A stretch of 64,000 nucleotides of DNA from a virus: positions 37,465 to 101,464 of the IMG/VR virus record IMGVR_UViG_3300020172_001405; one strand, 5' to 3'. Shown here in pieces: positions 31,958 to 61,770 of this stretch. The first letter of the stretch is position 1. The number at the start of each line of letters is the position of its first letter. The notes under the pieces are model-generated. The model searched no databases, was not told the DNA's origin, and was given only the letters and a program-made list of their open reading frames with translations. The translations under genes and the position numbers were made by a program.

Positions 31958-32522
31958 CTCTAGCTCCAAACGGGTTGTAGTTTGCATAAGCCTGGAATTG
32001 TGGGTCATTGATCATTTCTTCAGAGTTTACCTGGTTACAGTCAATGCTGAAGAGGGTGTAGGCATCGGTAATAATTCCTTTAGCAAATACTTGCTTAGGG
32101 GTAAAGACCTGATCACGGAATACAATTCTATCTCTTAGATAAGAGTCTGGATTTGTAGGTAGGTATTTAAGCTCAGGTATAATTTGAGACTCTGCCCCAG
32201 ATAGGCTAGACCCGTCAATTACATCCATATTTATAGTAAGACGGAGTACGTCAGTATTGTAAAAACCTCTATCACCCTGAACAGTTACGCCTTGGAATAA
32301 GGCCGCATTAACCACAGGTATTGAGTGTGGCCCGTCCCACCTACGTCCTCCACTATTGCTACCTACGTCATAAATTGGGTCTACAACGCTACTAGTGCTG
32401 TTGTAAAACCACCACTCAACGTTGTATCCAACCGTACGTACTACCTCTTTTGAGGTGGCAGAGATAATGGCGCCACGCTCATGGTCTACGCTAAAGCGGC
32501 CTACCACTCTCTCTCCGCGCAC
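31944..32522 (-). CDS. head closure / neck protein
   Basis: DPIYDVG..GRRW...DRIVFRDQVF; position near the tail completion genes. Confidence 0.6.
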   Translation of the reverse strand: MRGERVVGRFSVDHERGAIISATSKEVVRTVGYNVEWWFYNSTSSVVDPIYDVGSNSGGRRWDGPHSIPVVNAALFQGVTVQGDRGFYNTDVLRLTINMDVIDGSSLSGAESQIIPELKYLPTNPDSYLRDRIVFRDQVFTPKQVFAKGIITDAYTLFSIDCNQVNSEEMINDPQFQAYANYNPFGARDANS

Positions 32523-32731
32523 TAGTCCTCCTGAGGAGCGGTAAAGACACCGGTCTCTGGGTTGTAGGTGCTGCTGATAAATACGCCATCTTCTACGTCG
32601 GTTACATCAACCATCAAAGGTTCGCTTAAAAATATAGCGGCTAGACGATCATCGGTATGGATAATATCTACTACTTGATTGTCGATAATAAATGCGACTT
32701 TATTTGGGGGCAAATTAGGTGCAGTAGTCAT
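32522..32731 (-). CDS. small putative fibre-assembly chaperone
   Basis: Start re-called at ATG 32731 (ATGA overlap). KVAFIIDNQVV...TYNPETGVF is similar to both halves of 43933..44367. Confidence 0.6.
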   Translation of the reverse strand: MTTAPNLPPNKVAFIIDNQVVDIIHTDDRLAAIFLSEPLMVDVTDVEDGVFISSTYNPETGVFTAPQED

Positions 32732-32973
32732 TCGATCTCTTTCTTGTACGATATTTGTATAGCTTCCCACTTATGAAGGGGGCAAGAAGCATTAGGTAAC
32801 TTTGATTTTAATTTCATTATGCATCCACATTCTTTACACTGAGAAGTAGACTTTATAAACCTATCACATCCGCGACATATGTCTAAACGTGTTTCAGCTA
32901 TATCTGTTTCTACTCGGCCTATGTTCTTATTAAAAAGGTCCCATGGCCTAGCAGGTCTTGTGTTTTCAGTCAT
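32728..32973 (-). CDS. Cys-rich small protein (DUF6171-like)
   Basis: RLDICRGC....CKECGCIM.LK..L..ASCPLHKW; paralog of 43684..43929. Confidence 0.75.
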   Translation of the reverse strand: MTENTRPARPWDLFNKNIGRVETDIAETRLDICRGCDRFIKSTSQCKECGCIMKLKSKLPNASCPLHKWEAIQISYKKEIE

Positions 32974-32981
32974 TGCTCTCC

Positions 32982-34727
32982 TTAAATTGTACCTAAGAAA
33001 TTATCGAGTGTTGATCCTTGAGACCCCGATGAAGGGGCTTTAATTATACCTACTGAGGTTCCTTTTGTAGGACTCGTAGGCGTAATAACTATATTTGAGC
33101 CTAGCTGGCTTGTCAATCCCGCAGCAGCATAGGCTTTAGCGGTAATTTGGTTGCCAACAGTAGAGACAATTAATGACCCTACAGTAGTGTAGCCAGAGTT
33201 TGTGTTGGTAGCTAGGCGGGTAGCAGATTGAGAAACTACGTTTCCAGACACTGAGCTAACAATAACAAGGTCTGTGTAGTAGGTAGTATCTCCACCAGAG
33301 TAAGATACCCCTGAACAGCAGCCAGATGGTGTACATCCCGCCCCTGAACAGGTAGCTTGTCCTCCAGAGCAAGAGCTGCTAGTTCCTATTTGATTTTGGT
33401 TTAGGCCCCCACACGCACCGCCCGTATAGCAGTTAAATCCTGTGCAAGATGCAGACCCTGTGCAGCTACTAGTCTGCTGCAGTTCCCCGCAATAGTATTG
33501 CGTTGATGAGGTTGAAGATTGTGTATGGCAATTATAGTAATCAGTATGTGAAGGGTACGTACTTTGATTATAGTTTCCAATACATTTTCCAGAGGTAACT
33601 GTTGTAGTTTCGCAATTTTCCCAACAATAAATAGTTTGAGTGTTGCAGTTTCCAGTACAGGATGTGGTAGTGCTATCACTAGTTCTACAGCAAACAAATG
33701 CGGCGTTTTGAATACATTGGCTGCTGGTCGAGTTAGGTACTACTACGCTCCCTGGAGAACAGCCATCTCCACCATATTGTGGATTTTCTGCGGGGTAGTA
33801 AGAAAACCCACTACCCGGACTAGTTACAGATCCTGAACATTGTGTACCGCAGGCAGCTATACTATAGGTAGTGTACGGCACAGACCCTGAACATTGTGTG
33901 CCGCATTGGGGGATAACATACCTAGTTGAAGTGCTTGTAGTTTGCTCGCGTAATGTACCTGGGCAACAGTTAGCCGAAGGACTTCCCGTCCAGCCTAGAT
34001 AAGTGTTTGTATAATCACAATAAGAGTTGTCTACTTGTGTAGTTTGTGTATATGCAAACGTAGCACCACAACCTGAAGCACAACTACCAAGTGTGACTCC
34101 GTTTTGATAATTGCTACAAGTGAGTTGCCCCGGAATAGAGGTAACGGGAGAACAGCATCCTGAAGGAACGCACCCAGTCCCTCCTCCAGAACAAGGGCTA
34201 GTAGTTCCCAAACTTCTAGTTCCTGTACAAGCAGAGCCGGCTTGAGATGTATTCCAGGTAGAGTAGTAATAGCTAAAAGATTGAGTGGTTGTGCAACTTC
34301 CTACAATAGCTGAAGTAGACTGAGTATATTGAGGGTACGTAGCCCACCAAGATCCGGAGTCGGTTATCCAAAAAACAGCGCCGGTGCCTCCTGAAACATC
34401 TGCTCTTACAGAAACATCTGTATTACCTAGATTAGCTGAAGCAATTGGGTAAGAGCTTGCCGCATCATCTGAAGTGGCTGAGTTAGACCCACTAATACGC
34501 CAATTTCCACGAAGTGCTGTCCATACTTGTCCGCTGTCTGCGGTGCCTAGGCCAGTAGTAGTTGATGCTCTATTAAAAGCGTCTTGAACTTTAGAAGCAA
34601 ACCATTGTCTCCATACTCCATTAACTTTAATGAATGCCGAAGTAGCCGTTCTCCATTGACCACTTACTTTTACTGAAAGACCAGATGCGGTCCTCCAGGC
34701 ACCATTAATTTTGGAGTTACCTGGCAT
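32982..34727 (-). CDS. putative fibre/adhesin with a long Cys-rich insertion
   Basis: N-terminal K(I/V)(N/S)GxWR repeats of fibre-anchoring type, a lectin-like beta domain (DAFNRA...GQVW...LDNF) and a central Cys/Ser/Thr/Gly region with about 36 Cys. Confidence 0.7.
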   Translation of the reverse strand: MPGNSKINGAWRTASGLSVKVSGQWRTATSAFIKVNGVWRQWFASKVQDAFNRASTTTGLGTADSGQVWTALRGNWRISGSNSATSDDAASSYPIASANLGNTDVSVRADVSGGTGAVFWITDSGSWWATYPQYTQSTSAIVGSCTTTQSFSYYYSTWNTSQAGSACTGTRSLGTTSPCSGGGTGCVPSGCCSPVTSIPGQLTCSNYQNGVTLGSCASGCGATFAYTQTTQVDNSYCDYTNTYLGWTGSPSANCCPGTLREQTTSTSTRYVIPQCGTQCSGSVPYTTYSIAACGTQCSGSVTSPGSGFSYYPAENPQYGGDGCSPGSVVVPNSTSSQCIQNAAFVCCRTSDSTTTSCTGNCNTQTIYCWENCETTTVTSGKCIGNYNQSTYPSHTDYYNCHTQSSTSSTQYYCGELQQTSSCTGSASCTGFNCYTGGACGGLNQNQIGTSSSCSGGQATCSGAGCTPSGCCSGVSYSGGDTTYYTDLVIVSSVSGNVVSQSATRLATNTNSGYTTVGSLIVSTVGNQITAKAYAAAGLTSQLGSNIVITPTSPTKGTSVGIIKAPSSGSQGSTLDNFLGTI

Positions 34728-35941: not shown

Positions 35942-36466
35942 TTATCCTAGGGGTGATTGGGCGGCAAATTTAGTAGATTCATCACCAAAAACAAAGGTAG
36001 TTATTGAGTACCTTTCCCCCTCTACAACCGGAAATACTTGATGTTTAAGGTGGGCACTATGAATGACCATGCTTCCTGCTCTCGGGGTAATGCTTAGGCC
36101 AAGAGTTGGGTATATTAGCTCTCCCCCAGTAAAGTCGTCATTTAGATATATAGCAATACCGAAGACTATTTTTCTTGGGTCATCAGGGTTTCCACCATCT
36201 GTATGGGGCCACATAAACTCTGAGTTTGTTAACTTTCGTAAATCGCGAGAATAGGCAATCGACCCCACATTAGTAAAAAATGTTTCAATACTTTTATACA
36301 CAGTTTGCGCTTTAAAGTACATCTCATCACCCATATCTTTAACTATGTTTCCTATATGTAGGGTAGTCCAGTCTACGTTTTCTTTAGCCTTAGATAAAAA
36401 AGCCATTCTCTGCTCTTCATCTAAAAACTTTTCAATTTCGTATACACCTTCTGCATGTACTTTCAC
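35942..36466 (-). CDS. 2OG-Fe(II) oxygenase, prolyl-4-hydroxylase type (#1)
   Basis: HTD...YLNDDFTGGEL...H...ERYS. Confidence 0.9.
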   Translation of the reverse strand: MKVHAEGVYEIEKFLDEEQRMAFLSKAKENVDWTTLHIGNIVKDMGDEMYFKAQTVYKSIETFFTNVGSIAYSRDLRKLTNSEFMWPHTDGGNPDDPRKIVFGIAIYLNDDFTGGELIYPTLGLSITPRAGSMVIHSAHLKHQVFPVVEGERYSITTFVFGDESTKFAAQSPLG

Positions 36467-37138
36467 TTAGTTGCCCCACTTGCTACTGTTGATGTGGCAA
36501 ATTTCAATTTCGTTTATATTAACATGGCTCGGCAACGACCCCACCCAGTAGATAGCTTCTGCCAGATCTTCTGCGGTCAATGCCTGATCTCGTTTTTGTT
36601 CTTGGGTATCAATGGTGGCCGGACAGATCTCCGTAATTTTAATGCCAAATTGGGGGAACTCAAGCCTCATCGTATCAATTAAGCCGCGCTCACCCCTCTT
36701 AGCATTTGTGTAGTTTCCTCCACCACGGTAGGGCACCTTACCACCAAAGGAAGTAATAAATATAATAGTTGGGGACTGCGACCTTTCCATGCAGGGTACA
36801 AATAGTTGGGACAGGTACATAGGGCCAGTAACGTTTATGTCGTAGGCTCTTCTAAAGTTTTCTGGGGTTTCATTAATAATATTGGTTGGGCCCGACCCGC
36901 CGCCAGCATTATTAACCAAAAGATCTAGTGTTATGTCTTTGTACTTCTCAAAGAAGCACTCTATTGCTTTAGAGTCTGTTACGTCTAGTTGATAAACCTC
37001 AACGTTGTTAGATACAAGCTTAGAGACTTTAGAAAGGTCTCTTGAAACAGCAATAACTTTATACCCATTTTCAGACAGGCGCCTAACTGTCGCTAATCCT
37101 ACGCCTTTACTGGCCCCTGTAACTATTGCTGTTTTCAA
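36467..37138 (-). CDS. short-chain dehydrogenase/reductase (YdfG-like)
   Basis: TGASKGVG, NNAG, catalytic S...YTNAK. Confidence 0.92.
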   Translation of the reverse strand: MKTAIVTGASKGVGLATVRRLSENGYKVIAVSRDLSKVSKLVSNNVEVYQLDVTDSKAIECFFEKYKDITLDLLVNNAGGGSGPTNIINETPENFRRAYDINVTGPMYLSQLFVPCMERSQSPTIIFITSFGGKVPYRGGGNYTNAKRGERGLIDTMRLEFPQFGIKITEICPATIDTQEQKRDQALTAEDLAEAIYWVGSLPSHVNINEIEICHINSSKWGN

Positions 37139-37894
37139 TTACATGCCTTGGTTCTTATTAAGCTCCATGTTGTTATGGATCCAATGTCCAGGGATCATAT
37201 ATTTAAAACCAGATTTTACAACGTGTGCTGTATGGAAATAGGGCGGAAATGCTGGAAATATTACAACGCTATTTTCCTTTGGCTTTAGGCCAAAGTCGAT
37301 TGCTTTATCTGCAACAGCTATATCATAGTCTAGGTCTACTCCTGGAGCTGACCCTTTAGAAAAACCATCAGCGCTGGTCCACCCGCCGTCATAGTCCTTT
37401 AGTTGAAAAGATATTTCTCCGCCTTCACAGTCATCGTTTAGGTACATAACTAATGAGTACCTTAACGTTTTATCCCCGTCTAGTTGGTCAAAGTGTGCGC
37501 CCATGCCCACTCCAGTATTGTACTTTTTTATGTTAAAGGTTGGAAAAAGCCTTGGCTCATCAAAGTCTCCCAAAGAAGCGGCATAGTCTTTGCAAACATT
37601 ATACATTGTAGTCATAATAGCGTTGTAGATATACTTACTTTTTTCTGCTACTTCAGCTGAATCCTGCGAAAAGATTGGGCTAAGCTTGTGTATTGCATTA
37701 ATATCAAAAGTTTTTGTTTCTCCGTAGATAAAATCTTTATCATTAGAGGCAGTCCAAGGGTTCCAAACATTTACCCCTGAATCTGGGTATTGTTCAAGAG
37801 CATCTAACTCTTTTAAGATTTTTTTAAAAGTACCAAAATCTTCAATAGCATCAGTATAGTAATATGCTTTTGGGTCTAGTATTTCTCTATTCAT
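37139..37894 (-). CDS. 2OG-Fe(II) oxygenase (#2)
   Basis: HFD...YLNDDCEGGEI...YFH...FKY. Confidence 0.9.
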   Translation of the reverse strand: MNREILDPKAYYYTDAIEDFGTFKKILKELDALEQYPDSGVNVWNPWTASNDKDFIYGETKTFDINAIHKLSPIFSQDSAEVAEKSKYIYNAIMTTMYNVCKDYAASLGDFDEPRLFPTFNIKKYNTGVGMGAHFDQLDGDKTLRYSLVMYLNDDCEGGEISFQLKDYDGGWTSADGFSKGSAPGVDLDYDIAVADKAIDFGLKPKENSVVIFPAFPPYFHTAHVVKSGFKYMIPGHWIHNNMELNKNQGM

Positions 37895-37905
37895 GCTCTT
37901 CTTCC

Positions 37906-38565
37906 TTAGTATTTATTTCTTGTATAGTGGTCTTTTTCTTTAATGAACCCGACAAGAACGTACCTTATTGGACCATCCCCTACGTGCTTGACGCCGTGCT
38001 CATACTCTTCGTTTCCTGGAAAAAATAACATAGTTCCTGGTTTAGGTTTTAACTGAATATTAAGATTTGGAAAAAATAACTCGCCATCCGCATAGTTATC
38101 GTTAATGTATACAATTGTAGCGTACTTTATAGAGGGGTCTGTTTTTTGATCAGTATGCGCTTTTAACTCTACCCCTGGTTGCATCCTTTGAATTGTTGCA
38201 AAACCACTTAAAATTAATTCTGGGTCAGCTTTTATTACCATTGAGTTTACAACGTCATATAAAGGTCTTTGAATTTCATGATGTAGTATGTTAAAGTTTT
38301 TATCTTTCCAATTTTGAGTAATTTCAAACTTGCCCTCAGCAACCAGATTTTCTACATCATCTCTGCCAAATTTTTCCATGCAAAAATACTTTAAGTTTGC
38401 GTGGTACTCTACTTCCCAATCTTCTTGAGATGTACTATGAATAATGTCCCAAAAAGTGTCTATTTGGTCTTGTGATAGAAAATTTTCAACAGAGAATAGT
38501 TCTGGGGTAATGTCTGTAACTACATAACCACTCTCTTTTAGCTGTTGTTTAAAAACCTCAATCAT
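37906..38565 (-). CDS. 2OG-Fe(II) oxygenase (#3)
   Basis: HTD...YINDNYADGEL...YEHGV...IRY. Confidence 0.9.
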   Translation of the reverse strand: MIEVFKQQLKESGYVVTDITPELFSVENFLSQDQIDTFWDIIHSTSQEDWEVEYHANLKYFCMEKFGRDDVENLVAEGKFEITQNWKDKNFNILHHEIQRPLYDVVNSMVIKADPELILSGFATIQRMQPGVELKAHTDQKTDPSIKYATIVYINDNYADGELFFPNLNIQLKPKPGTMLFFPGNEEYEHGVKHVGDGPIRYVLVGFIKEKDHYTRNKY

Positions 38566-39313
38566 TTGAAATATCTTCTATTTTGTACTTATTTCCAGCA
38601 GCATCTAATTTCCAACCCTGCTTAAGAAGCTCTTGCCACTCTGCTCGTTCAATTTCTTGTTGAGCTCTAGTAGCTTTCATTTCTTCAGCCCAAGCATCTC
38701 TTACTTCTTGTGGATAATCTGACTCTTCTCGGTCATCCCAGAAAGATCCAATGGTGTATCTTACGCCGCTTTCTATTAAAGAAACTTCGTGCATGTTATT
38801 AAATCCGCCGTCAAATACGGCAAGCATTCCAACCTCTGGTTTAATCTCTATATTTTGACTTGGGAACTTAAGTAATCCGCCCTTAAAGTCATCATTAAGA
38901 TATAGAAACCCAGCATAGCGGCTTCTTGTAAATGCGCCCGAGTTTCCTTCAGCGTCTGTGTTGTCGGAATGAATTCTTGCGTATGCTCCTGGCTCCCACT
39001 TTTGTGTGTGGTACCCAATTTTACAAATTGTTTTTGGGTCTAAATCGTGGACTGAGGCAATTGCTTCTGGCATTGCTTTTTCAATGTCTGAAAATATAGT
39101 TGGGGAGAGGCCAGCGTCAATTACTTCTTGGTCGTTATCTTGTGGCAAAACTGAAGAGTATGACTCATAAAATGAGATAGGCATCCAAGAAATTGCACCG
39201 TTGGCTGCTTGAGCATCCAGGGCTTGAATCATTTTTTTGCAGTCTTCTTTGCCTATAAAGTTTTCATAAACAACTAGGTCTTTTGTTATTCTTTTTTTGT
39301 TTTTCAAATTCAT
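38558..39313 (-). CDS. 2OG-Fe(II) oxygenase (#4)
   Basis: HSD...YLNDDFKGGLL...MHEV...VRYT. Confidence 0.9.
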   Translation of the reverse strand: MNLKNKKRITKDLVVYENFIGKEDCKKMIQALDAQAANGAISWMPISFYESYSSVLPQDNDQEVIDAGLSPTIFSDIEKAMPEAIASVHDLDPKTICKIGYHTQKWEPGAYARIHSDNTDAEGNSGAFTRSRYAGFLYLNDDFKGGLLKFPSQNIEIKPEVGMLAVFDGGFNNMHEVSLIESGVRYTIGSFWDDREESDYPQEVRDAWAEEMKATRAQQEIERAEWQELLKQGWKLDAAGNKYKIEDISND

Positions 39314-39329
39314 CGTATTTTTGCTCCGT

Positions 39330-40103
39330 CTAGTTATTTATAAGTGATTTATCTCCAGCAATAAGCTTTTCTATTTCCTGCTGAACAAGGGCGTACTCTT
39401 CTTCAAATACTTCTGGGGTTCTGCCTTCTCCCATAGTAGCGGGAATTCCTTCTTCTAGAAGGGCCTCTTTTAATGTCTTTTCAATATCATAATTTAAAAC
39501 AGTGCACTGAAACCAGTTTGCTACATACCCATCTTTATCAATAAGGTACTTTTCAAAGTTTCCGCCCTGCTCAGCACCATTAGAAATAGGCTGATTAAGC
39601 CAAGGGGATAGGTACCCGTCTCTATCTGGAATGCCAAGTTCTTTTTGTTTTGCAGCATATGCGTGCATTTGGTCTTTAATCTCCCGATACAATTCATGGG
39701 TTTCTTGTTTAGGCTGACCTAAGCCGTTTACAGAATTATCCCCTTTATGCTCACTTAATGCATTTGCACTTTCATTTGGGTTTGATGAGACCATTTCTGA
39801 AAACTGAAAAGTAGTTCCATAAACATCTTTGCCGTACTCTTGTGAGTCCGCCCCACAGGTAATACCTTGTGACCACTTACCCTTAGTAATCCCTACCCCA
39901 CAGTAGTCATTAGTAGGGATAGCAATTACCTGGAAATCATCTCCGCCGTACTTATCTTGAAGCCATTGTAGAACTTCCATCTGGTTTGCATTGCCGCAGC
40001 CAACTGTGGTGTTTGCCAGTAGCGTTACTTTACCCTTAAACTGGTTTAAGAAGCCCGGAGACCCGTCAGCCGAGTTAAGCGGAATATCATAGATCGATTT
40101 CAT
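39330..40103 (-). CDS. glutathione peroxidase-like (thioredoxin-fold) protein, divergent
   Basis: SIYDI...FKGKVTLLANTTVGCG..Q...LQ.LQDKY...VIAIPTNDY...NFEKYLIDKDG follows the GPx/BtuE pattern. Confidence 0.85.
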   Translation of the reverse strand: MKSIYDIPLNSADGSPGFLNQFKGKVTLLANTTVGCGNANQMEVLQWLQDKYGGDDFQVIAIPTNDYCGVGITKGKWSQGITCGADSQEYGKDVYGTTFQFSEMVSSNPNESANALSEHKGDNSVNGLGQPKQETHELYREIKDQMHAYAAKQKELGIPDRDGYLSPWLNQPISNGAEQGGNFEKYLIDKDGYVANWFQCTVLNYDIEKTLKEALLEEGIPATMGEGRTPEVFEEEYALVQQEIEKLIAGDKSLINN

Positions 40104-40124
40104 GTGGTTTATTGTACTCCGTTA

Positions 40125-40811
40125 CTACGGCTTTCTATCCCCTGTATGCGCGGTTATTTCCCAAAAAAATGGGCATGTAAATCTTAGGCCGCTCTTGATC
40201 TCAGTAACCCCGTGAATGTAGTTTTTATCCCCTGGGAAGAAGTAAGCGGCGCCCTTTTTAGGTTTAAACTGTACGCCCTGCAGTGGGAAGTAGAGCTCCC
40301 CACCTTCATAGTCGTCGTTTAAATAGAACAGACTCGAGAGGTCATAGTTTGGAAAATCATTAGGTGTTCCAGCATCTGGGCCCTCATGAAGCTCTTTATC
40401 AGCATGAGGTTTTTGAAACTGCCCAGGGAGCCATTTAACAATAGTCGTACCAGTTGGAATAACCTCTACCTTATAAAACTCTTCAATAATTGGCCTTAGT
40501 CTTTGAAATAGCCCTGCAATTATTGGGGATATCTTTGGATCATTTTTATCCAAAGTGGGTTGGGTTGCAACCCTATCTTTCCAGTAATCTGAGTCGTAAG
40601 TGACTGTACCATTCTCATTTGTATGGCTTTGAGTTACATCCCAGATTGTTAGAGACTTAGCTGCTTTTTCTAAAAACTCTATCTCTTCTTGAGTCATAAA
40701 GTTCTCTAGCTCTACGATCATGTCTTTGCTATCTCCAAACCAGCCAGACGGTGTCATAGACGGCGTTCTTTTTGCTACGGTATATGAATCTTTGTTTTGT
40801 TCCATGTTCAT
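40125..40811 (-). CDS. 2OG-Fe(II) oxygenase (#5)
   Basis: HAD...YLNDDYEGGEL...YIHGV...LRFT. Confidence 0.9.
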   Translation of the reverse strand: MNMEQNKDSYTVAKRTPSMTPSGWFGDSKDMIVELENFMTQEEIEFLEKAAKSLTIWDVTQSHTNENGTVTYDSDYWKDRVATQPTLDKNDPKISPIIAGLFQRLRPIIEEFYKVEVIPTGTTIVKWLPGQFQKPHADKELHEGPDAGTPNDFPNYDLSSLFYLNDDYEGGELYFPLQGVQFKPKKGAAYFFPGDKNYIHGVTEIKSGLRFTCPFFWEITAHTGDRKP

Positions 40812-41524
40812 AGTATATTCCCTTTCGTTTTATCTACTACCCCTAATTTTAATGCTTTTACTTCATGGGAGCCTTGAGACTCTTCTTTTTCATTTACAGC
40901 GTCTCTATACCAGTCTGTCCATTTTCCAGCAGAGTTTATTGCTTGTGCGGCAGTCCCATAGGACATGTTTGCATCTAGTCTTTTTCTGTCTGGATCCCTA
41001 TACTCAACAATCTCAATATCTGTCCCATTTAAATTTGACAAAGATATGGGGATAATTGTGGCAACTGGGGTTCCCGCCTTAATAACTACACGCTTATTTG
41101 CAGTCTTTGCCTTGATAGCTAAAGGCAACGGGTTGTCATAAAACGAAGTGCTAATTAAAGACGCCATTGTCTCAAACTCATCACTAAAATAATTTACTGG
41201 GTTAATGGTAAAGATACTAACATCCTGCTCTGTCCTAAAAACTAAGCCTGTATTTAGGCTTATAGAGGACTGACCTCTTCCAGAATAAGATCCTTCTGGA
41301 CTAAATACTTGAACATGATCTGGAGTTTGGTCGTTTACACCATCCCAAATAAACTCAATATCTTCTAGACAAGACAGGCTCCAGCCAATTACATTTGATT
41401 GGGTTACTGGAAAACACCTATAAGCATGGTTCTCTGATGTTGCATCCATCCAGTCTCTTTTAATTGACATAGGTTGGATATCAAACAAAGCCCCCTGTGT
41501 TTTTTCAACGGAGATCTTAAACAT
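40808..41524 (-). CDS. DUF6065-like protein
   Basis: KRDWMDAT...HAYRCFPVTQSNVIGW...KAGTPVATIIP pattern, recalled from proteins that accompany 2OG oxygenases. Confidence 0.7.
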   Translation of the reverse strand: MFKISVEKTQGALFDIQPMSIKRDWMDATSENHAYRCFPVTQSNVIGWSLSCLEDIEFIWDGVNDQTPDHVQVFSPEGSYSGRGQSSISLNTGLVFRTEQDVSIFTINPVNYFSDEFETMASLISTSFYDNPLPLAIKAKTANKRVVIKAGTPVATIIPISLSNLNGTDIEIVEYRDPDRKRLDANMSYGTAAQAINSAGKWTDWYRDAVNEKEESQGSHEVKALKLGVVDKTKGNIL

Positions 41525-42180
41525 TAATCTGCGTCTGCGCTATACATTTCTGGAGTATGGAACTTTTTGCTGTAGTCAAGCATTGTTACAATAGAGTACT
41601 TAGTTCCAGAGGTTACTGGCATTGCTTGGTGTGGGTACATAAAGTTTGACGGGAAAATAAACAGGTCTCCAGCTTCTGGTTTAACCTTTAAGTTTTGCAG
41701 TCTAAAGTAGAGCTCCCCGCCCTCATAGTCATCATTGACGTATGAGACTAGAGAAACAGTGCAGTTATAAGAAAAGCCGTGGTCATGGTGCTCCATGAAG
41801 TGCTGGCCTGGACCATACTTAATAAAGTTAAACGCTTCCCAGTACTTTAAATTATTAATATTATACATTCTTGAATAATCTTGTACCGCAGGCAGTTTGG
41901 CATCATACAGGTCTTGCCAAAGGGTTTGAAGGTTTTGTGATATTTCGCTTTTGTCTGGTTCTAGATCTGTTTTTTTAAACTTAAAGTCGTTGCAGTCTCT
42001 ATACTCTGGCATAAGCTGTTTATACCCAACATAGGCGGGTTGCCAAGCGTATCCAGTCGTATCTCCTTCTGGCTTAAGGTTAGCCTCAAGCCTATTTATC
42101 ACATCAAAACTTTCTTTAATAACTCCCTTGTAACGAAATATGCCGTTTCCAAGGTCTTCTTTTTCTGTCCATGTCTGCAT
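41524..42180 (-). CDS. 2OG-Fe(II) oxygenase (#6)
   Basis: HHD...YVNDDYEGGEL...FPSNFMYPH...TKYS. Confidence 0.9.
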   Translation of the reverse strand: MQTWTEKEDLGNGIFRYKGVIKESFDVINRLEANLKPEGDTTGYAWQPAYVGYKQLMPEYRDCNDFKFKKTDLEPDKSEISQNLQTLWQDLYDAKLPAVQDYSRMYNINNLKYWEAFNFIKYGPGQHFMEHHDHGFSYNCTVSLVSYVNDDYEGGELYFRLQNLKVKPEAGDLFIFPSNFMYPHQAMPVTSGTKYSIVTMLDYSKKFHTPEMYSADAD

Positions 42181-42189
42181 TATGCTCTC

Positions 42190-42957
42190 CTATTTGTAGT
42201 CTCTTTTTGACCAAATTTTGTTTTGATATACCCCACCATCAGGCTGGCGGTAAAATTGCATGTTATTAACTAGTTTATCATACATCGTAGATTGATCTGG
42301 AATTTCTATTTTGTGCTCCCAGTTTTCTCGTTTAAACGGAAGAACCTGCATGTATGGGGTTCCTTCTGGCAAGGTACCTTCCCAGCCTTCTGGAAGAAAA
42401 AATGGAAAAGTTCCAAGTAAGTGGAGTTTATCCGAGTCTACGACGCCAGTAGTATTTAAAAATGGTAAGTCAAACCTATTCATTGGCGTCATAAACAGGG
42501 CACTGTATCCTTCTGGAAGCTCTAGCCCCCAGGGAGAACTCCAAGCAAAATGAGTTTGGTAGTATCCCTTTGGGTGCTCAAACTGTGGCATTGGAGGCCT
42601 TTGGGTACAAAAATCCTGATACTTAGGGTTATCAATCTTTACATCTATAATTCCCTGATCGTTTTTATAAAAAACTAAATCGCAGGGTGTCTTAAAAACG
42701 TACCCGGTTGTAAAGGCGTCCATAATAGCTGGGCACGCTTTCCACGTAGGAATCTTTCCATAGTCATCAGTTGTGCCTTCTTTAGGAAATGGGCAAACTT
42801 CTTTTGGCGCTTTGTAGTATTCCCCGTTTGGCATTTTTGCAAATCTGTCTGCGTCTTTATACCAATCTGGCATTTGTGTTTGTGTTGGTACGGGGACAGA
42901 AATATGCTTCTTATCTATCCACGGCCTAAAAGATCTAAATATAGCTACTAAAGACAT
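42190..42957 (-). CDS. DUF6065-related protein (dUTPase-like beta fold)
   Basis: PDWYK...TWKACPAIMDAFTTGY...PEGYSALF..P.N...GVVDSD...GTPYMQVLPFKRENW. Confidence 0.6.
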   Translation of the reverse strand: MSLVAIFRSFRPWIDKKHISVPVPTQTQMPDWYKDADRFAKMPNGEYYKAPKEVCPFPKEGTTDDYGKIPTWKACPAIMDAFTTGYVFKTPCDLVFYKNDQGIIDVKIDNPKYQDFCTQRPPMPQFEHPKGYYQTHFAWSSPWGLELPEGYSALFMTPMNRFDLPFLNTTGVVDSDKLHLLGTFPFFLPEGWEGTLPEGTPYMQVLPFKRENWEHKIEIPDQSTMYDKLVNNMQFYRQPDGGVYQNKIWSKRDYK

Positions 42958-43664
42958 TACTTGTGCCCCAATTCATTGATATCTGTCATAACAACAACGC
43001 AGTATTTTGTCCCTGAAACCATCGGCAGAGAAGCATGTTCATAAATATAGTTTGACGGGAAGACTGCAATGTCCCCTACTTTTGGTTTATAAACTAAATT
43101 ATCAAGTCTTGGGAACTTTAGATCTCCACCCTCATAATCATCATTAATATAGATAACGGCAGACACAGTACAGTTATATGCGGGACCGTGATCTGCATGA
43201 ATATTAAAGTGGGTACCGCTTCCCTCATACTTTACAAAGTTAAATGCCTCGTAATACACTACGTTAATGCCCCAATACCTGGCATAATCATCTATGCAGT
43301 ACTTAAGCTTTTGATAGATTTCTTCATGCAAGTCTATAAGTTCTGCATTTGTTTCGTCTCTTGGGCCAAGGTTTTCCTGCTTGTACTTAAAATCTACGCA
43401 GTCTCTTGCCTTCTTAACTGGAACGGCAGACTGAGTAACCTGTGCTTCTGACCACTTATACTTATTTCCTGGAGATAGGTTGGACTCAAGAGTATTGATA
43501 TATCTGGTGGCATCCTCAATAGAGAAAGTATTTTGGTAAACGTGTAGGCCCAAACCTAAGTTTTTGACGCTTACTTTATTATCTAGCGCCCTCTCAGGAA
43601 CCCTATTTGAGGCTGTCTCTGACCTATCTTTTGTAAACCAGGCATTTTCATTTTCATCGTGCAT
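42957..43664 (-). CDS. 2OG-Fe(II) oxygenase (#7), paralog of #6
   Basis: EAFNFVKY...HADHG..YNCTVS..YINDDYEGGDL...FPSNYIYEH...TKY. Confidence 0.9.
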   Translation of the reverse strand: MHDENENAWFTKDRSETASNRVPERALDNKVSVKNLGLGLHVYQNTFSIEDATRYINTLESNLSPGNKYKWSEAQVTQSAVPVKKARDCVDFKYKQENLGPRDETNAELIDLHEEIYQKLKYCIDDYARYWGINVVYYEAFNFVKYEGSGTHFNIHADHGPAYNCTVSAVIYINDDYEGGDLKFPRLDNLVYKPKVGDIAVFPSNYIYEHASLPMVSGTKYCVVVMTDINELGHK

Positions 43665-43683
43665 TTTTATACCGTCCTATAAA

Positions 43684-43929
43684 TTAATCGAGTGGTTGTT
43701 TTTTCCATTTTCCAATAGGGCACTCTGCATCGGCAAGTGTTGTTTTTAGAGGCATAATGCACCCGCATAGCTTACAGCTTTTTGTAACTTTAATGAGGTT
43801 TTCACAAGAGAGGCACTCGTCAAGTCTTTTTTTAATAATCTCTGGGTCATTAATTTTTTTGCCAGAATCAATTAGGTGCCAAGGCCTTGAGTCCCCAAGA
43901 GCTTCTTTCCACTCGCTCCATTTAGACAT
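43684..43929 (-). CDS. Cys-rich small protein (DUF6171-like)
   Basis: RPW.L...RLDECLSC....CKLCGCIMPLK..L..AECPIGKW. Confidence 0.75.
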   Translation of the reverse strand: MSKWSEWKEALGDSRPWHLIDSGKKINDPEIIKKRLDECLSCENLIKVTKSCKLCGCIMPLKTTLADAECPIGKWKKQPLD

Positions 43930-43932
43930 GAG

Positions 43933-44367
43933 CTACTCCGGATCAGTAAAAGTTGCGCCATCCCAGATAGAGCCGCGAACGGCTGTTTGACCTTCTGGTA
44001 CTTTAATAATGATAACCTCTTGAGCAAACGCAGCGGCGTTCATCAAATCTGTGTGACTATTTTTTGGGGCCACCGTAGTTAAAAAAACGGTGTTGTCTAC
44101 TAGGAAAGAGTATCTTCCCCAGTCAGGAGTGTCATTGAATCTTTCAGGTCTTTCTCCGCCTACAAACGATTCACCATCCCAAACTGATCCAGGATATACC
44201 TCTGGAATATCTGTTGTATTCATTGTGATTATTGGAAGTCCACTATCTAACGCAGCATCAATACGCTGGATTAAAGCGTGTGCTTTAGGGCCATCAAGAT
44301 GCAGCGTATTAAAAACTTCGTAAGAGTCTTCAGATACTTTTACTGCGTATGCGTATGTGCAAGTCAT
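43933..44367 (-). CDS. putative fibre-assembly chaperone, tandem two-domain
   Basis: Internal duplication: ...PGSVWDGESF and ...RGSIWDGATF. Confidence 0.6.
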   Translation of the reverse strand: MTCTYAYAVKVSEDSYEVFNTLHLDGPKAHALIQRIDAALDSGLPIITMNTTDIPEVYPGSVWDGESFVGGERPERFNDTPDWGRYSFLVDNTVFLTTVAPKNSHTDLMNAAAFAQEVIIIKVPEGQTAVRGSIWDGATFTDPE

Positions 44368-44386
44368 AGTATTAGTTTACCACAGC

Positions 44387-45358
44387 TTAGTAAGCACACT
44401 GACAGCCGCAACCCGCACCAAAGTCGTAAGCGCAGAAGTAACAGGCTGAACCACAGCCACCAAAGCTTGGGAAAGATGGTGGGAAGAAAGGCGGGAAGAA
44501 TGGTGGAAAGAACGGGAAGAACGGAGGGAAAAATGGTGGGAAGAACGGAAAGAACGGAAAGAATGGTGGAAAGAATGGTGGAAAGAACGGAAAGAATGGC
44601 GGAAAGAAGGGCGGGAAGAATGGGAAGAATGGGAAAAATGGTGGGAAGAATGGAGGAAAGAATGGGAAGAAGGGTGGAAAGAATGGTGGGAAAAATGGTG
44701 GAAAGAATGGTGGGAAGAATGGGAAGAATGGAAAGAACGGCGGAAAGAACGGAGGAAAGAATGGGGCTAGGGTAGTAATTGATCCAGATGCAGGCGAAGC
44801 AACGCTTGTTCCATTAGCGTTAGTGGCAGTAACTGTGTAAGTCTGCGAGGTATCCGCGGTATCATTAATAGTAATTGGGGAGGTAGCACCTGTGCCAGTA
44901 GTAGCATCAGAGCCTGTTACGGTAAAGCCAGTAATGGCGCTACCGCCAGTTGCTGGGGCTGTAAAAGCAATTGAGTTCTGATTAACTCCAGCAGTTGGAG
45001 TTGGCGCAGACATTGTTGCAGGAACTGTTGTTGCGGTAATAGAAGCAGAGGCTGTAGATGCCTGAGAGGTTCCGGCAGCGTTTGTTGCGGTTACGGTAAA
45101 TGTGTAGGATGTGGCAGACTGAAGTCCAGCTACTGTAATTGGAGAAGATGCGCCAGTTCCTGTATATCCGCCAGGAGATGAAGTTACAGTAAATGATGTA
45201 GCGGCAGGAGATAGTGCAGGCAAAGAGAAGGTAACTGTCGCTGCGCCATTGTTAAACGCTCTGCCTGTTCCAACATCTGTGGCAGATACGCCTGTGGGTG
45301 CTAATGGCTCTAGAAAGTCATTTGATGCAGCAGAACGTCTGCCCGTCTTCTTAGCCAT
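44387..45358 (-). CDS. fibronectin type III protein with C-terminal Pro/Phe repeat tract and Cys-rich tip
   Basis: Two FN3 repeats (GLQSATSYTFTVTATNAAGTS; YTVTATNANGTS), then (P/PP)FF x26, then GGCGSACYFCAYDFGAGCGCQCAY. Confidence 0.85.
   Translation of the reverse strand: MAKKTGRRSAASNDFLEPLAPTGVSATDVGTGRAFNNGAATVTFSLPALSPAATSFTVTSSPGGYTGTGASSPITVAGLQSATSYTFTVTATNAAGTSQASTASASITATTVPATMSAPTPTAGVNQNSIAFTAPATGGSAITGFTVTGSDATTGTGATSPITINDTADTSQTYTVTATNANGTSVASPASGSITTLAPFFPPFFPPFFPFFPFFPPFFPPFFPPFFPPFFPFFPPFFPPFFPFFPFFPPFFPPFFPFFPPFFPPFFPFFPFFPPFFPPFFPFFPPFFPPFFPPSFPSFGGCGSACYFCAYDFGAGCGCQCAY
44462..44764 (-). repeat. coding tandem repeat, PFF/PPFF
   Basis: 101 codons: 10 PFF + 16 PPFF + PPSF + PSF, with mixed synonymous codons. 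Confidence 0.95.
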
Positions 45359-45370
45359 TTATCCCCCCTA

Positions 45371-47113
45371 TTATGCTGTTAGATCGCCGTAAACTACCCA
45401 AGTATTTGTTGCTCTCTTGAATAGTGTGCATGAAGACCATGTTGTTCTTAGCTTTAATCCCGGTGTTGCGTTTACTGTTACTCCAGCATCTCCAGCAATT
45501 GTTACCTGTCCCGTAGAAGTTTGGAGAATATCAATAGATGTTCCAACCGGAAAAGCCACTGCTGAGTTTAGAGGGATAGTAATTGTTGTAGCGCTTCCAC
45601 TAGCAACTTCAATTAAACTATCTCTTTCAGTTAATGCTGACAGTGTGTATGACGCTGTCTTTTGAATAATTGGTGTGCGTGAAGGCGCAGCTTCTTTTGT
45701 TTGTGTTCCGTCTGAAAACACAATTCCTTCCGCAGGAAGAGTTACTGTTCCAGTAAATGTTGGTGAAGCAAGTGGTGCTTTTAGTGCAAGATTAGTTGTG
45801 ACTGTGCTAGCAAAGTTTGCGTCATCACCAAGTGCTGCTGCAAGCTCATCAAGAGTATTAAGTGCTGCTGGAGCACCTGATAGTAGTGCGTTAACTTGTG
45901 ATGTTGCATCTGCGATTGCTTCTGACTTAGCAGTCGCAATTGCTGTAGCCTGTGCTGTAGATACTGGCTTTGCTGTATCTGCTGTATCATCAACATTGCC
46001 GAGGCCTACCATAGACTTTGTAATACCAGAGACTGTACCTGTAAATGTAGGGTTTGCAAGGTTGGCTTTTAAATCAAGAGCAGTCTGTTGCGCGGTTGAT
46101 ACCGGCTTGCTTGCATCTGCCGTGTTATCAACATTTCCAAGACCTACGTCTGACTTAACTAATCCCGCTGGGGTAGTAATTGTTTTATTTGTAAGCGTTT
46201 GAGATCCAGTTGTTGTTACAAGAATGCTGGTATCCGTAATCCCATGAACAGCGGTAGTATCTGAAGAATGAGTAGAAACTGCACTATCGGCATAGGTCTT
46301 TGTAGCAAGCTCTGCTGTATCTGCAATGCCATGTACGGCCGTTGTATCTGCAATGTGTGTTGAGACTACACCATCAGCATAGGTTTTTGTGGCTAGTGCT
46401 GAAGTATCCGGTATACCATGAACATCTGTAGTGTCTGAACTATGTGTGCTTACAGCAGTGTCTGCGTATGTTTTTGTGGCAAGTGCTGCTGTATCCGTAA
46501 TTCCATGCACATCCAAAGTATCTGTAGAGTGTGTAGAAAGTGATGTAGAGACTGCATTATTTGCTGCACTATCGGCATAGGACTTAGTAGCAAGCTCTGC
46601 TGTATCTGCAATTCCGTGGACACTTGTTGTATCTGAAGAGTGTGTAGACACAGCGCTGTCTGCATACGTCTTTGTAGCAAGCGCTGAAGTATCCGCAATG
46701 CCGTGAACAGAGGTTGTGACTGAAGTGTGTGTGCTTACCGCGCTATTTGCGTAATCTTGTGTAGCAAGTGTTCCTGTTGAGTCTGGAAGAGTCAATGTTC
46801 TATCTGCTGTAGGGTCTGCTACTACAAGAGTAGTCTCAAAATCATTTGCAGTTTGGCCTTCAAACACAAGGTTGACACCAGTGCCCAAAGACACTGAGCC
46901 GGTAAAAGTAGGGTTATTAATTGTGGCGTAGAGGCTTGCTGCAGCTGATGGAGTTAAGGTTATATAAGGTAGGGAAGCCCAAACTGTAAGTCCGTCTCCA
47001 ACCTTAAGCTTCTTACTATCAGTTTCTACGCCAACCTCTCCTTCAAGAAGGATTGGGTTTGATGCGGTCCACTCAGCCGCAGTTCCCCTGCGTAGTAGAA
47101 TACTAACTGCCAT
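45371..47113 (-). CDS. tail fibre protein (Mtd/hyaluronidase-type N-terminal anchor, His-containing repeats)
   Basis: LRRGTAAEWTASNPILLEGEVGVETD..KLKVGDG; six ~29-aa ...STH.......VHG repeats; VGLGNVDNT; APAALNTLDELAAAL. Confidence 0.85.
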   Translation of the reverse strand: MAVSILLRRGTAAEWTASNPILLEGEVGVETDSKKLKVGDGLTVWASLPYITLTPSAAASLYATINNPTFTGSVSLGTGVNLVFEGQTANDFETTLVVADPTADRTLTLPDSTGTLATQDYANSAVSTHTSVTTSVHGIADTSALATKTYADSAVSTHSSDTTSVHGIADTAELATKSYADSAANNAVSTSLSTHSTDTLDVHGITDTAALATKTYADTAVSTHSSDTTDVHGIPDTSALATKTYADGVVSTHIADTTAVHGIADTAELATKTYADSAVSTHSSDTTAVHGITDTSILVTTTGSQTLTNKTITTPAGLVKSDVGLGNVDNTADASKPVSTAQQTALDLKANLANPTFTGTVSGITKSMVGLGNVDDTADTAKPVSTAQATAIATAKSEAIADATSQVNALLSGAPAALNTLDELAAALGDDANFASTVTTNLALKAPLASPTFTGTVTLPAEGIVFSDGTQTKEAAPSRTPIIQKTASYTLSALTERDSLIEVASGSATTITIPLNSAVAFPVGTSIDILQTSTGQVTIAGDAGVTVNATPGLKLRTTWSSCTLFKRATNTWVVYGDLTA

Positions 47114-50698: not shown

Positions 50699-51775
50699 TT
50701 AGTTGGTTTCTGCTAGAACTACAGACTGATCTGTGATTAGACCTAGACCGTAGATTGCGTACCAAGCAAGTGCATGCTCACGACCGAAGTCAAGAATACC
50801 GCCATCGCGGAGCTCAACTGGTAGAGAGATTGCGTGACCAAATGCATTGTCACCAATAAAGATAGCTGTGTAGCGATCCTTGTTACCGTTACCGGTCTTT
50901 GTTACTGGAGAAGTATAGCCTCCACCAGTTGGGTACTGAATGCTGCCAGCAGCAACTGCGGTGTCTGCAGAGTATCCTGAACCTGCACCGTTTGTTACCT
51001 TCTGGATCTGTGTGGTCTCGATAAATACTGTGTCGTATAGACGACCAATTTCACCAAGCATGAAGTTACCTGGAGCTGCGTACTTTGTTACTTCGATAAA
51101 CTCTGGGTTGTCACGAAGCTTGCGGCTCTGGTGTGGGTGAATGAATGCAACATATGTCTCACCTAGGCGAGGGATGTTCTTTGTTGCAAGTGTCTCTACT
51201 GCGTCCTTAACAACACCTGTGGTGAGGTCAAATGCGCCAGTTAGAGATGCACGGTTTGTACCAGCGGTACCTGTTCCGTACCAGTCATTTGCAGCTGTAA
51301 GACCTGTGCGGTCATAGCCGTAGATAACTGAAGATGCGGCCATGAGTGTGTCACGAGCCTGACCATCAAGGTATAGGGCCATGTTACGGCCGAGTAGACG
51401 TGAGGCTGAAGCCATTACGTCATCAAATGATGCGTTAAGTAGGAGTTCAGAAACAGCAATTGCATAACCGTGTTCAGCAACTGTAATTGAGAATTGCTGA
51501 GCTGTTAGTGCCTTAGTTTCCATACGAACGCCTTCAACAAGCGTACCGGCAAAGCCGAGGTTGTTGTAACGCATAAAGTTGATCTGAAGACCTGGTGCAA
51601 CTCCTAGTTCTGTCTTCTTAACAGCGAACTGCTCGAAGCGAAGAATAGGCATTGACTGGAAAAGAATTTCCTTTGACCAGATGGTTTGAATTGCTTGTGT
51701 AAGCTGGCTGTTAGCGCCAGAATACGCTGTTGGGGCAGCGGCTAGATTGCCGGTACCAGTTACGGCTGATGCCAT
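50699..51775 (-). CDS. major capsid protein (HK97 fold, N4-gp56-like)
   Basis: LRFEQFA, LVEG, EHGYAI, YVAFIHPHQ, GEIGRL, DFGREH.LAWY; follows portal and scaffold. Confidence 0.92.
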   Translation of the reverse strand: MASAVTGTGNLAAAPTAYSGANSQLTQAIQTIWSKEILFQSMPILRFEQFAVKKTELGVAPGLQINFMRYNNLGFAGTLVEGVRMETKALTAQQFSITVAEHGYAIAVSELLLNASFDDVMASASRLLGRNMALYLDGQARDTLMAASSVIYGYDRTGLTAANDWYGTGTAGTNRASLTGAFDLTTGVVKDAVETLATKNIPRLGETYVAFIHPHQSRKLRDNPEFIEVTKYAAPGNFMLGEIGRLYDTVFIETTQIQKVTNGAGSGYSADTAVAAGSIQYPTGGGYTSPVTKTGNGNKDRYTAIFIGDNAFGHAISLPVELRDGGILDFGREHALAWYAIYGLGLITDQSVVLAETN

Positions 51776-61603: not shown

Positions 61604-61770
61604 TCTTCATCCTTTGGATTACGTAATCGGTAAGTCACCGCCCACGCAAATATTGTGCCTACAATCGCATAGCCTACAATAGTTTTAGCTGACCCGTCTA
61701 GAACAACCCAGGCAATAAACATGCCTAATAGTGTCCATAGCTGGTCGATCATATCTCTTAGTACTCTCAC
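61600..61770 (-). CDS. small two-TM membrane protein, 56 aa (holin candidate)
   Basis: Manual: [56 protein letters not shown]; GTGA and ATGA overlaps on both sides. Confidence 0.75.

Follow-up and report, generated by a model that had tools for sequence, protein, structure and literature searches.

Why should a tailed phage carry seven enzymes of the prolyl hydroxylase type in tandem among its structural genes? The question is raised by a block of 14 genes in a window of 64,000 bp (the whole stretch of DNA that was analysed), which represents bases 37465-101464 of the 101,464-bp IMG/VR record IMGVR_UViG_3300020172_001405; positions of genes in this virus are counted from the first base of the window. 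The block starts with the gene for a repeat protein, REP, which contains a tract of about 100 residues that are exclusively proline and phenylalanine. The other 13 genes code for seven 2-oxoglutarate (2OG)- and Fe(II)-dependent oxygenases (OX1-OX7), two proteins of the DUF6065 type (D65a, D65b), a protein with the glutathione peroxidase (GPx) fold, a short-chain dehydrogenase/reductase (SDR), and two small proteins (g144, g81) (Table 1). The tract and the oxygenases occur together across hundreds of phage fragments. We hold with moderate confidence, as the best single reading of the locus, that the two are functionally linked: the block would be a late-operon cassette, with the tract of REP as the substrate and the seven prolyl-hydroxylase-type oxygenases encoded behind it.

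A first-pass annotation of the sequence had proposed a locus that combines a substrate with its tailoring enzymes. This proposal is upheld with respect to the type of enzyme, the location in a late structural operon, and the presence and number of oxygenases, which track a Pro-rich aromatic repeat. Two of its parts were given up, the link of the small genes to the oxygenases and the likeness to clusters for ribosomally synthesized and post-translationally modified peptides (RiPPs).

Table 1. Position and characteristics of the genes in the 14-gene block and of associated features in the window.
Feature	Position	Strand	Characteristics
Major capsid gene	50699-51775		
Upstream fibre-like gene	45371-47113	minus	580 aa; Mtd_N N-terminal domain (PF18454, E 1.4e-15); His-containing repeats
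REP, candidate substrate	44387-45358	minus	323 aa; conserved N-terminus, FN3, second Ig-like stretch (probable), Pro/Phe tract, 6-Cys tail
g144, small protein	43933-44367	minus	found only behind Cys-tailed REP genes
g81, small protein	43684-43929	minus	four Cys; DUF6171-like / phrog_13558; found only behind Cys-tailed REP genes
OX1, 2OG-Fe(II) oxygenase	42957-43664	minus	Lys type; PF13640, 41.9 bits; alignment
D65a, DUF6065-like	42190-42957	minus	dUTPase-like fold (model, pLDDT 90); invariant Cys75; phrog_7084, E 1e-33; Atlas
OX2, 2OG-Fe(II) oxygenase	41524-42180	minus	Lys type; PF13640, 56.1 bits; core of both lineages
D65b, DUF6065	40808-41524	minus	PF19541, 90.4 bits (cut-off 26.6); core of both lineages
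OX3, 2OG-Fe(II) oxygenase	40125-40811	minus	Arg type; most conserved member; kept in Pro-poor relatives
GPx-fold protein	39330-40103	minus	PF00255, 35.1 bits (cut-off 27); core of both lineages
OX4, 2OG-Fe(II) oxygenase	38558-39313	minus	Arg type; C-terminal charged helical extension
OX5, 2OG-Fe(II) oxygenase	37906-38565	minus	Arg type; Pfam, alignment
OX6, 2OG-Fe(II) oxygenase	37139-37894	minus	Lys type; insert of ~40 residues in barrel
SDR, classical	36467-37138	minus	PF00106, 140 bits; TGxxxGxG and YxxxK intact
OX7, short 2OG-Fe(II) oxygenase	35942-36466	minus	Arg type; below Pfam thresholds; aligned with paralogues
Second copy of Cys-tip module	32522-34727	minus	581-aa protein with 36 Cys (32982-34727), g81 paralogue (32728-32973), g144-like 82-aa gene (32522-32770)
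Sheath gene	28614-30179		

Seven oxygenases of the prolyl hydroxylase type

The earlier count of seven 2OG-Fe(II) oxygenases stands. Six of them pass the gathering cut-off of PF13640 (27 bits) with 33-56 bits, and OX7 was assigned by alignment and motifs, its BLAST E-values against the paralogues ranging from 0.002 (OX6) to 1e-11 (OX2), and only that for OX6 being higher than 3e-8. The HxD motif, the distal His, the motif Y(I/L/V)ND..xGG, and a 2OG-binding Arg or Lys are retained in all seven, and the alignment agrees with the original assignment of Lys as 2OG ligand in three members (OX1, OX2, OX6) and of Arg in the other four. The seven share 20-44% pairwise sequence identity and are old, distinct paralogues. 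Orthologues in sister phages reach up to 99% identity for the best-conserved member, OX3, and much lower values for OX6 and OX7. Residues H136, D138, H200, and R210 of OX3 are invariant in 23 orthologues, among which identity goes down to 25%.

The nearest solved structures by sequence are the prolyl 4-hydroxylase (P4H) from B. anthracis, which is the best PDB match for OX2 (E 6e-5), the collagen lysyl hydroxylases LH3 and mimivirus L230, PiuC, P3H1, and the P4H of chlorovirus PBCV-1. The fold comparison covers OX3, for which an AlphaFold model with a predicted local distance difference test (pLDDT) value of 91 has its top match in PBCV-1 vCPH (5c5t, E 6e-11, template modelling (TM) score 0.70 by target). 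Further fold matches are the P4Hs from B. anthracis and Chlamydomonas, P3H1, C-P4H-II, and PHD2, so that the double-stranded beta-helix of OX3 is closest to that of peptidyl prolyl hydroxylases. Pfam assignments, sequence matches, and the fold of OX3 thus all agree with the description as prolyl-hydroxylase-type enzymes. A match of OX4 to NF041706 is far below threshold (E 0.005).

It is highly improbable that the enzymes act on bases of DNA or RNA as AlkB and TET/JBP do. OX3 and OX7 show weak, sub-threshold matches to Tet_JBP, and labels such as 'DNA endonuclease V' are attached to related PHROG families. However, these labels represent annotation carry-over, and the six of the seven proteins that pass a Pfam cut-off do so for PF13640 and not for an AlkB or TET family. 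The top 50 fold matches of OX3 are prolyl hydroxylases throughout, with no AlkB or TET entry among them, and the block is located among structural rather than replication genes.

The Pro/Phe tract of REP

REP had been described as two FN3 domains, followed by 26 P/PP-FF units and a Cys tip. The 26 units (exactly 16 PPFF and 10 PFF in residues 199-297) and a tail with six Cys are present, and one FN3 domain (residues 38-104) is above the Pfam cut-off, while the second probably corresponds to an Ig/FN3-like stretch. REP is the sole PPFF protein in the genome of this phage. Within the tract, Pro is encoded by CCA (28), CCG (11), CCT (4), and CCC (2), and Phe by TTC (37) and TTT (16). Third codon positions thus vary while Pro and Phe are constant, which argues that it is the peptide that is kept. 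The alternative that the tract is a misread DNA microsatellite, with an ORF of 165 aa on the opposite strand (44278-44775), was rejected on the same grounds and because thousands of homologues share the reading frame of REP. We also observed a strong local codon bias: TTC accounts for 70% of the Phe codons in the tract (44468-44764), compared to 21% (with 79% TTT) in eleven other genes from the window.

More than 2500 relatives of REP were found in metagenome protein sets, many of them from contigs of ~110 kb. Their tracts are variants built from PPFF, PPYF, PFF, FFxPP, or FCP; after the tract, the protein ends, continues with a Cys-rich knot, or has ~160 residues which start with Cys and often end with HN. 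In some relatives (P0010, L028:6165-7025, L070:10001-10858), part of the tract is replaced by FCP-type units (FCPFFPNFCPSFCP...) with a Cys every 4-5 residues. The ~160-residue segment (e.g. in P0031, P0060, P0072, L030:9989-11254, L052:9995-11245) has the appearance of a self-cleaving Hint domain; our Pfam scans gave sub-threshold matches only (Hint_2, Intein_splicing), and precomputed hits to PF14890 or PF07591 exist for some of the proteins. If it is self-cleaving, this Hint-like domain would turn the tract into the new C-terminus of these REP relatives. REP from the window has the 6-Cys tail instead of a Hint-like domain.

A pattern scan showed that fibre-like proteins from lake phages use the PPFF tract as a general module. 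It is found at the terminus or between folded domains of proteins with unrelated N-termini, which have 550-1100 aa, in some cases with two or more tracts, and beside PT-type linkers (examples are L127:4421-7174, L129:891-3770, L204:7641-9287, L211:3237-4604, and L191:1761-2741). The only other strongly Pro-rich protein from the window has 627 aa with a long Pro-rich linker (61767-63650) and is a possible further hydroxylase target. A megablast search with the block and a tblastn search with REP gave no match in the phages collection, a result that is weakened by the low-complexity filter and by the exclusion of near-identical records. The pattern scan of bacterial and archaeal genomes retrieved 42 stretches, with true ORFs in the PFF frame only on contigs from metagenome-assembled genomes; several of these contigs hold phage genes of the REP, fibre, or oxygenase type, and no host was identified.

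Co-occurrence of the tract and the oxygenase battery

Where the sequence suffices, the gene order fibre, REP, OX1, D65a, OX2, D65b, OX3, (GPx), OX4, OX5, OX6, SDR is conserved in 79 related viral loci, and the order beginning with fibre, REP, OX1, D65a, OX2, D65b, and OX3 is retained by about 60 related viral contigs. A second lineage is represented by contigs of up to 210 kb and codes for enzymes that are 25-45% identical to those from the window and are encoded in the same order: fibre, Pro/aromatic repeat protein, OX3-like oxygenase (1-3 copies), OX2-like oxygenase, GPx, DUF6065, and more oxygenases. The repeat proteins of this lineage differ from REP, being either small (80-170 aa) and ending with PPxFK, or FN3 proteins of 350-725 aa that do not have the N-terminus of REP. 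The small proteins (e.g. L134:151-579, L271:526-1032, L260:1695-1928, L251:6017-6705) have a short N-terminal part, a tract of PPFF, PPYF, PPHF, or PPWF, and the fixed PPxFK end, and their genes are flanked by a large fibre gene on one side and by the core of oxygenase, GPx, and DUF6065 genes on the other. The lineages comprise at least 390 and at least 570 viral contigs, and the tract, OX3, OX2, GPx, and DUF6065 are constant across both of them. One related contig, L245, belongs to a metagenome-assembled genome with the name prefix ME2014, which possibly denotes a Lake Mendota series.

The association was also found when starting from the enzyme side. Of 80 loci that were picked by DUF6065 alone, 31 represent unique contexts in which the upstream sequence extends over 6 kb or more, and in 28 of these a Pro/aromatic repeat ORF is encoded upstream on the same strand. 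Adjacency and co-occurrence of repeat ORFs and oxygenases, as had been postulated, are thus seen in phage fragments from two deep lineages.

Not only the presence but also the number of oxygenases follows the repeat. We compared 48 distinct REP-type genes for which at least 9 kb of downstream sequence is available (35 Pro-rich, 13 Pro-poor). Pro-rich versions are followed by a median of 7 oxygenases (range 1-10), Pro-poor versions of the FGFSPF type by a median of 1 (range 0-2), and the oxygenase count correlates with the Pro content of the repeat (Spearman rho 0.82, uncorrected for phylogeny). Pro-poor relatives, in which the repeat is made up of FGFSPFxV units and accompanied by a Hint-like domain, lack a battery; just one OX3-like gene is located ~3.6 kb downstream of them. 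In a tree of the REP N-terminus, three changes of the Pro-rich state are seen, each accompanied by a change in the oxygenase count. Streptomyces phage BRock has neither the oxygenases nor REP.

The Pro-poor clade also bears on the question whether the oxygenases modify other virion proteins from the fibre block, such as the upstream Mtd_N fibre with its His-rich repeats or the downstream Cys-rich 581-aa protein, with the Pro/Phe protein being just a fellow fibre component. There are arguments for such targets: in either lineage, the gene directly before the repeat gene is always a fibre gene, homologous to that of the Mtd_N fibre; the oxygenase arrays from phages Syn9 and S-SCSM1 also adjoin fibre genes, which are Gly-rich there; and the fold relatives of the enzymes hydroxylate Lys, Asn, Asp, and His in addition to Pro, with LH3 and mimivirus L230 being among the sequence matches. 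However, the Pro-poor clade retains the upstream fibre gene and has lost all but one of the oxygenases, so that the array follows the type of repeat and not the presence of the fibre. We therefore regard it as improbable that these other proteins are the targets.

Location in a late structural operon

The virus is an uncultured freshwater or lake myophage, and the record, which has direct terminal repeats, was judged complete. All genes from the window except one are encoded on the minus strand, and the GC content is ~43%. The gene set is that of a myophage, with sheath, major capsid protein, portal, large terminase, a DNA polymerase of family A, and a helicase. The major capsid protein shares 72-73% sequence identity with its counterparts from Streptomyces phages BRock, LuckySocke, and Alone3 (genomes of ~113 kb), and the nearest cultured kin are the BRock-like Streptomyces phages.

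All 14 ORFs of the block are found, as described at first, co-oriented and tightly packed within the structural region. They are located between the capsid and the sheath gene with fibre-like genes on both flanks, and the stretch between capsid and sheath extends over ~20 kb in this phage compared to ~5.5 kb in BRock. From position 48758 down to 35942, intergenic distances are between -8 and +21 nt, while the next gap has 71 nt. This tight packing indicates that the block is part of one long late operon between head and tail genes. A scan for promoters and terminators gave counts that were no higher than the shuffled level.

Relation to the oxygenase arrays of cyanophages

Tandem oxygenase arrays are not restricted to phages with a Pro/Phe tract. 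Cyanophage Syn9 has ten tandem dioxygenases together with a dUTPase-fold protein that contains a conserved Cys (gp41-gp54), for which synthesis of a secondary metabolite was proposed and no protein substrate was named (Iyer, Abhiman, de Souza and Aravind 2010, PMC2938197). 2OG oxygenases occur in 14 of 16 cyanomyophages, and roles in 2OG and nitrogen stress or in DNA repair were suggested (Sullivan et al. 2010, PMC3037559). As gp43 from Syn9 matches the DUF6065 profile (E 5e-18) and is accompanied by tandem dioxygenases, the battery from the window is a relative of the Syn9 array. Both have many anciently diverged tandem 2OG-Fe(II) dioxygenases and a conserved-Cys dUTPase-fold protein, and both arrays directly follow tail-fibre genes in the same orientation. 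They differ in that Syn9 codes for two tryptophan halogenases and a JmjC/MINA-type member, Pfam families that do not occur among the 14 genes from the window, and in that Syn9 has no PPFF tract, the neighbours being Gly-rich instead. In Syn9 (L367, 23900-50000), the array comes after the Gly-rich proteins gp36 (35% Gly), gp38, and gp39 (22-23%), just as the array from the window is preceded by a low-complexity fibre protein.

The battery may thus be an auxiliary, host-takeover, or metabolite array of the Syn9 type, acting on a small molecule, on a non-ribosomal or free peptide, or on host proteins, in which case its position behind the Pro/Phe gene would reflect inherited order in a hot spot of the fibre region. 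The window oxygenases are assigned to phrog_61 ('2OG-Fe(II) oxygenase'), which is categorized as moron/auxiliary metabolic gene, cyanophages account for nearly all tblastn matches of OX2 in cultured phages, and SDR and GPx would suit redox reactions on small molecules as well as protein chemistry. We consider this the main rival explanation, which is possible but less likely than the functional link. It does not account for an oxygenase count that tracks the Pro content of the neighbouring repeat, nor for a repeat gene in nearly all of the contexts that were selected by DUF6065. No halogenase, non-ribosomal peptide synthetase, transporter, or other metabolite gene was found among the 14 genes, the block is translationally packed inside a structural late operon, and the nearest folds are those of protein prolyl hydroxylases.

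Weighing the functional link

Several observations speak against a functional link between the tract and the battery. The phylogenetically corrected co-variation test is reduced to three independent pairs, one of them on well-supported branches; with this single pair it has no power and cannot reach significance. The conserved order could represent inherited synteny since the two lineages have fibre genes in common, and adjacent genes recombine together whatever their function. Two loci (L045, L056) have a short PPYF tract, yet only 1-2 oxygenases. PPFF tracts also occur as internal linkers in proteins encoded far from any array. Larger PPFF-bearing contigs hold a battery elsewhere (6 oxygenases in G001, 6 in G004, and 10 in G007), while small fragments hold none. 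For five PPFF-bearing fragments, whole-record scans retrieved no oxygenase, but these are 11-31% complete, so that the absence says nothing.

Arrays without the tract weigh on the same side. It had been anticipated that oxygenase clusters are tied to Pro-rich repeats, and in a wide sense they are not: Syn9 and other Kyanoviridae, one of them with a DUF6065 homologue, have arrays and no PPFF tract. A search for FFPPFFPP with up to two mismatches gave no match in Syn9, S-SCSM1, ACG-2014b, and Melnitz, despite their related dioxygenase arrays, and the oxygenases of ACG-2014b are located among replication genes. Finally, the functional link leaves unexplained why seven or more distinct enzymes should be required for a polymer with two types of residues, and what DUF6065, GPx, and SDR contribute. 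The predicted complex of OX3 with REP residues 190-260 scored 0.07 and 0.02 (mark 0.32), which counts neither for nor against the link.

Proposed modification of the tract

If the tract and the battery are functionally linked, prolyl hydroxylation is the likeliest chemistry because of the fold relatives of the enzymes. Some or all of the oxygenases would hydroxylate prolines of the tract, before or during assembly of the fibre. Phe may be a further target, as had been suggested. The target could be the phage's own tract or that of any other phage-made protein which bears PPFF. Hydroxylation would render an extremely hydrophobic polymer soluble and stiff.

Comparable systems are found in eukaryotes and their viruses. 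The P4H from PBCV-1 reportedly acts on Pro-rich repeat peptides, e.g. (Pro-Ala-Pro-Lys)n, which match ORFs of the virus itself. As in the window, a virus codes for an enzyme of the P4H type, the one that is structurally closest to OX3, and Pro-rich repeat proteins are the likely targets. PBCV-1 differs in having one enzyme rather than seven, which is not encoded adjacent to the repeat genes, in its eukaryotic host, and in the hydrophilic nature of its repeats; moreover, activity has been demonstrated for vCPH, while that of the enzymes described here is predicted. P4Hs from plants and algae hydroxylate repeats of the extensin type, and repeats of mussel foot proteins carry hydroxyproline, dihydroxyproline, and 3,4-dihydroxyphenylalanine (DOPA). 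Such Pro-rich repeats, often with aromatic residues, become stiff or adhesive through several hydroxylations. These are systems of the eukaryotic secretory pathway; we do not claim homology of the substrates, and the block from the window has no glycosyltransferase.

A more detailed scenario can be envisaged, although we consider it unlikely as a whole. The battery may write a position-specific pattern of oxidation, with 3- and 4-hydroxyproline, dihydroxyproline, and perhaps beta-hydroxy or keto groups introduced via the SDR, leading to a rod or adhesive on the tail fibre that resembles extensin or mussel glue. The DUF6065 proteins would be partners that hold the substrate, and the oxygenase count would mirror how many different Pro contexts a repeat offers, a single one in FGFSPF units and several in PPFF/PFF units. 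On this view, the orphan 2OG oxygenases of aquatic phages would in general serve the maturation of fibres.

The layout had been likened to that of a RiPP cluster. This likeness is loose: a candidate substrate gene directly precedes enzymes of the tailoring type, as in clusters with YhhC-type cyclophane-peptide oxygenases, but REP is a multi-domain protein of 323 aa with folded domains and does not have a leader peptide. Scans with Pfam, PHROG, and NF-family profiles found no protease, no transporter or exporter, and no RiPP recognition element (RRE) family among the neighbours of REP.

DUF6065, GPx, and SDR

The annotation of the remaining proteins was confirmed. D65b is above the Pfam cut-off; D65a, which has no Pfam hit, shares phrog_7084 with it, is linked to it in the Atlas, and can be aligned with it, residues W, C, G, D, P, and R being invariant. 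The model of D65a matches dUTPases in Foldseek (E 3e-4), with VIA Z values of 8.4-9.1 to eight dUTPases, and the top 22 rows are all of the dUTPase or dCTP deaminase type. Judging from this model, the DUF6065 proteins are dUTPase-fold proteins with a conserved Cys and not oxygenases; an interpretation of DUF6065 as a further cupin-type oxygenase was rejected since the D65a model is a dUTPase-like barrel. Homologues of D65a with 27-31% sequence identity occur in Halophage HF1 (L119, 48119-49003) and 48 other haloarchaeal tailed viruses. The HF1 homologue adjoins baseplate genes, and the 10.5-kb region examined has no gene annotated as oxygenase (the full record was not scanned).

The GPx-fold protein, whose thioredoxin-fold domain is over the cut-off of PF00255, has a Cys that aligns with the peroxidatic position of 3e0u, with good alignment being limited to the N-terminal half; the other residues of the catalytic tetrad appear to be altered. 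The SDR is an intact classical member of its family; its best PDB match is 3asu (E 2e-25), and its nearest relative is uninformative. As had been proposed, the SDR and the GPx-fold protein may carry out further redox steps or protect the iron enzymes.

A putative maturation module for Cys-rich fibre tips

The small genes g144 and g81 had been considered as accessories of the oxygenases, but they co-vary with the Cys tip of REP instead. One or both are found behind REP in 20 of 24 loci where the tail has at least 4 Cys and in 4 of 8 loci with 1-3 Cys, while they are absent from all 25 loci with a Hint-like tail and all 14 with a Cys-free tail. Together, this amounts to 24 of 32 Cys-tailed loci versus none of the 39 other loci (a slightly different cut-off results in a 2x2 table of 23 / 6 / 1 / 40). 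The state of the Cys tail changes 12 times on the tree and three pairs rest on supported branches, so that an independent-pair test is underpowered. The window has another Cys-rich fibre gene, that for the 36-Cys protein, and both small genes have paralogues behind it. As g81 and g144 follow REP only when it has a Cys tail, and as their paralogues are found behind the 36-Cys protein, the two genes belong to the Cys tip and stand apart from the oxygenase battery.

A weak lead connects g144 with chaperones of tail-fibre assembly, and a homologue of g81 is located before the fibre genes of Syn9. The pair has the appearance of a module that matures the Cys-rich ends of fibres and would serve the tip by folding, metal binding, or assembly.

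Significance

Multiple 2OG-Fe(II) oxygenases belong to the commonest genes in aquatic phages that lack an explanation. Attention was drawn to them by the Syn9 genome and again by Sullivan et al. 2010 and Iyer et al. 2010, and the suggested functions extend from DNA repair to the synthesis of metabolites. The cassette, which is abundant in lakes, supplies a concrete candidate substrate that can be tested cheaply, as a short PPFF peptide or a single protein. We found no description of a system that combines such a tract with an oxygenase array in the literature on PPFF or Pro-Phe repeats, DUF6065, phage prolyl hydroxylases, or modification of tail fibres. If the tract is indeed hydroxylated by the battery, this would be, to our knowledge, the first post-translational hydroxylation system for a virion protein of a bacteriophage. 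It would also represent a new kind of structural polymer and provide a function for DUF6065.

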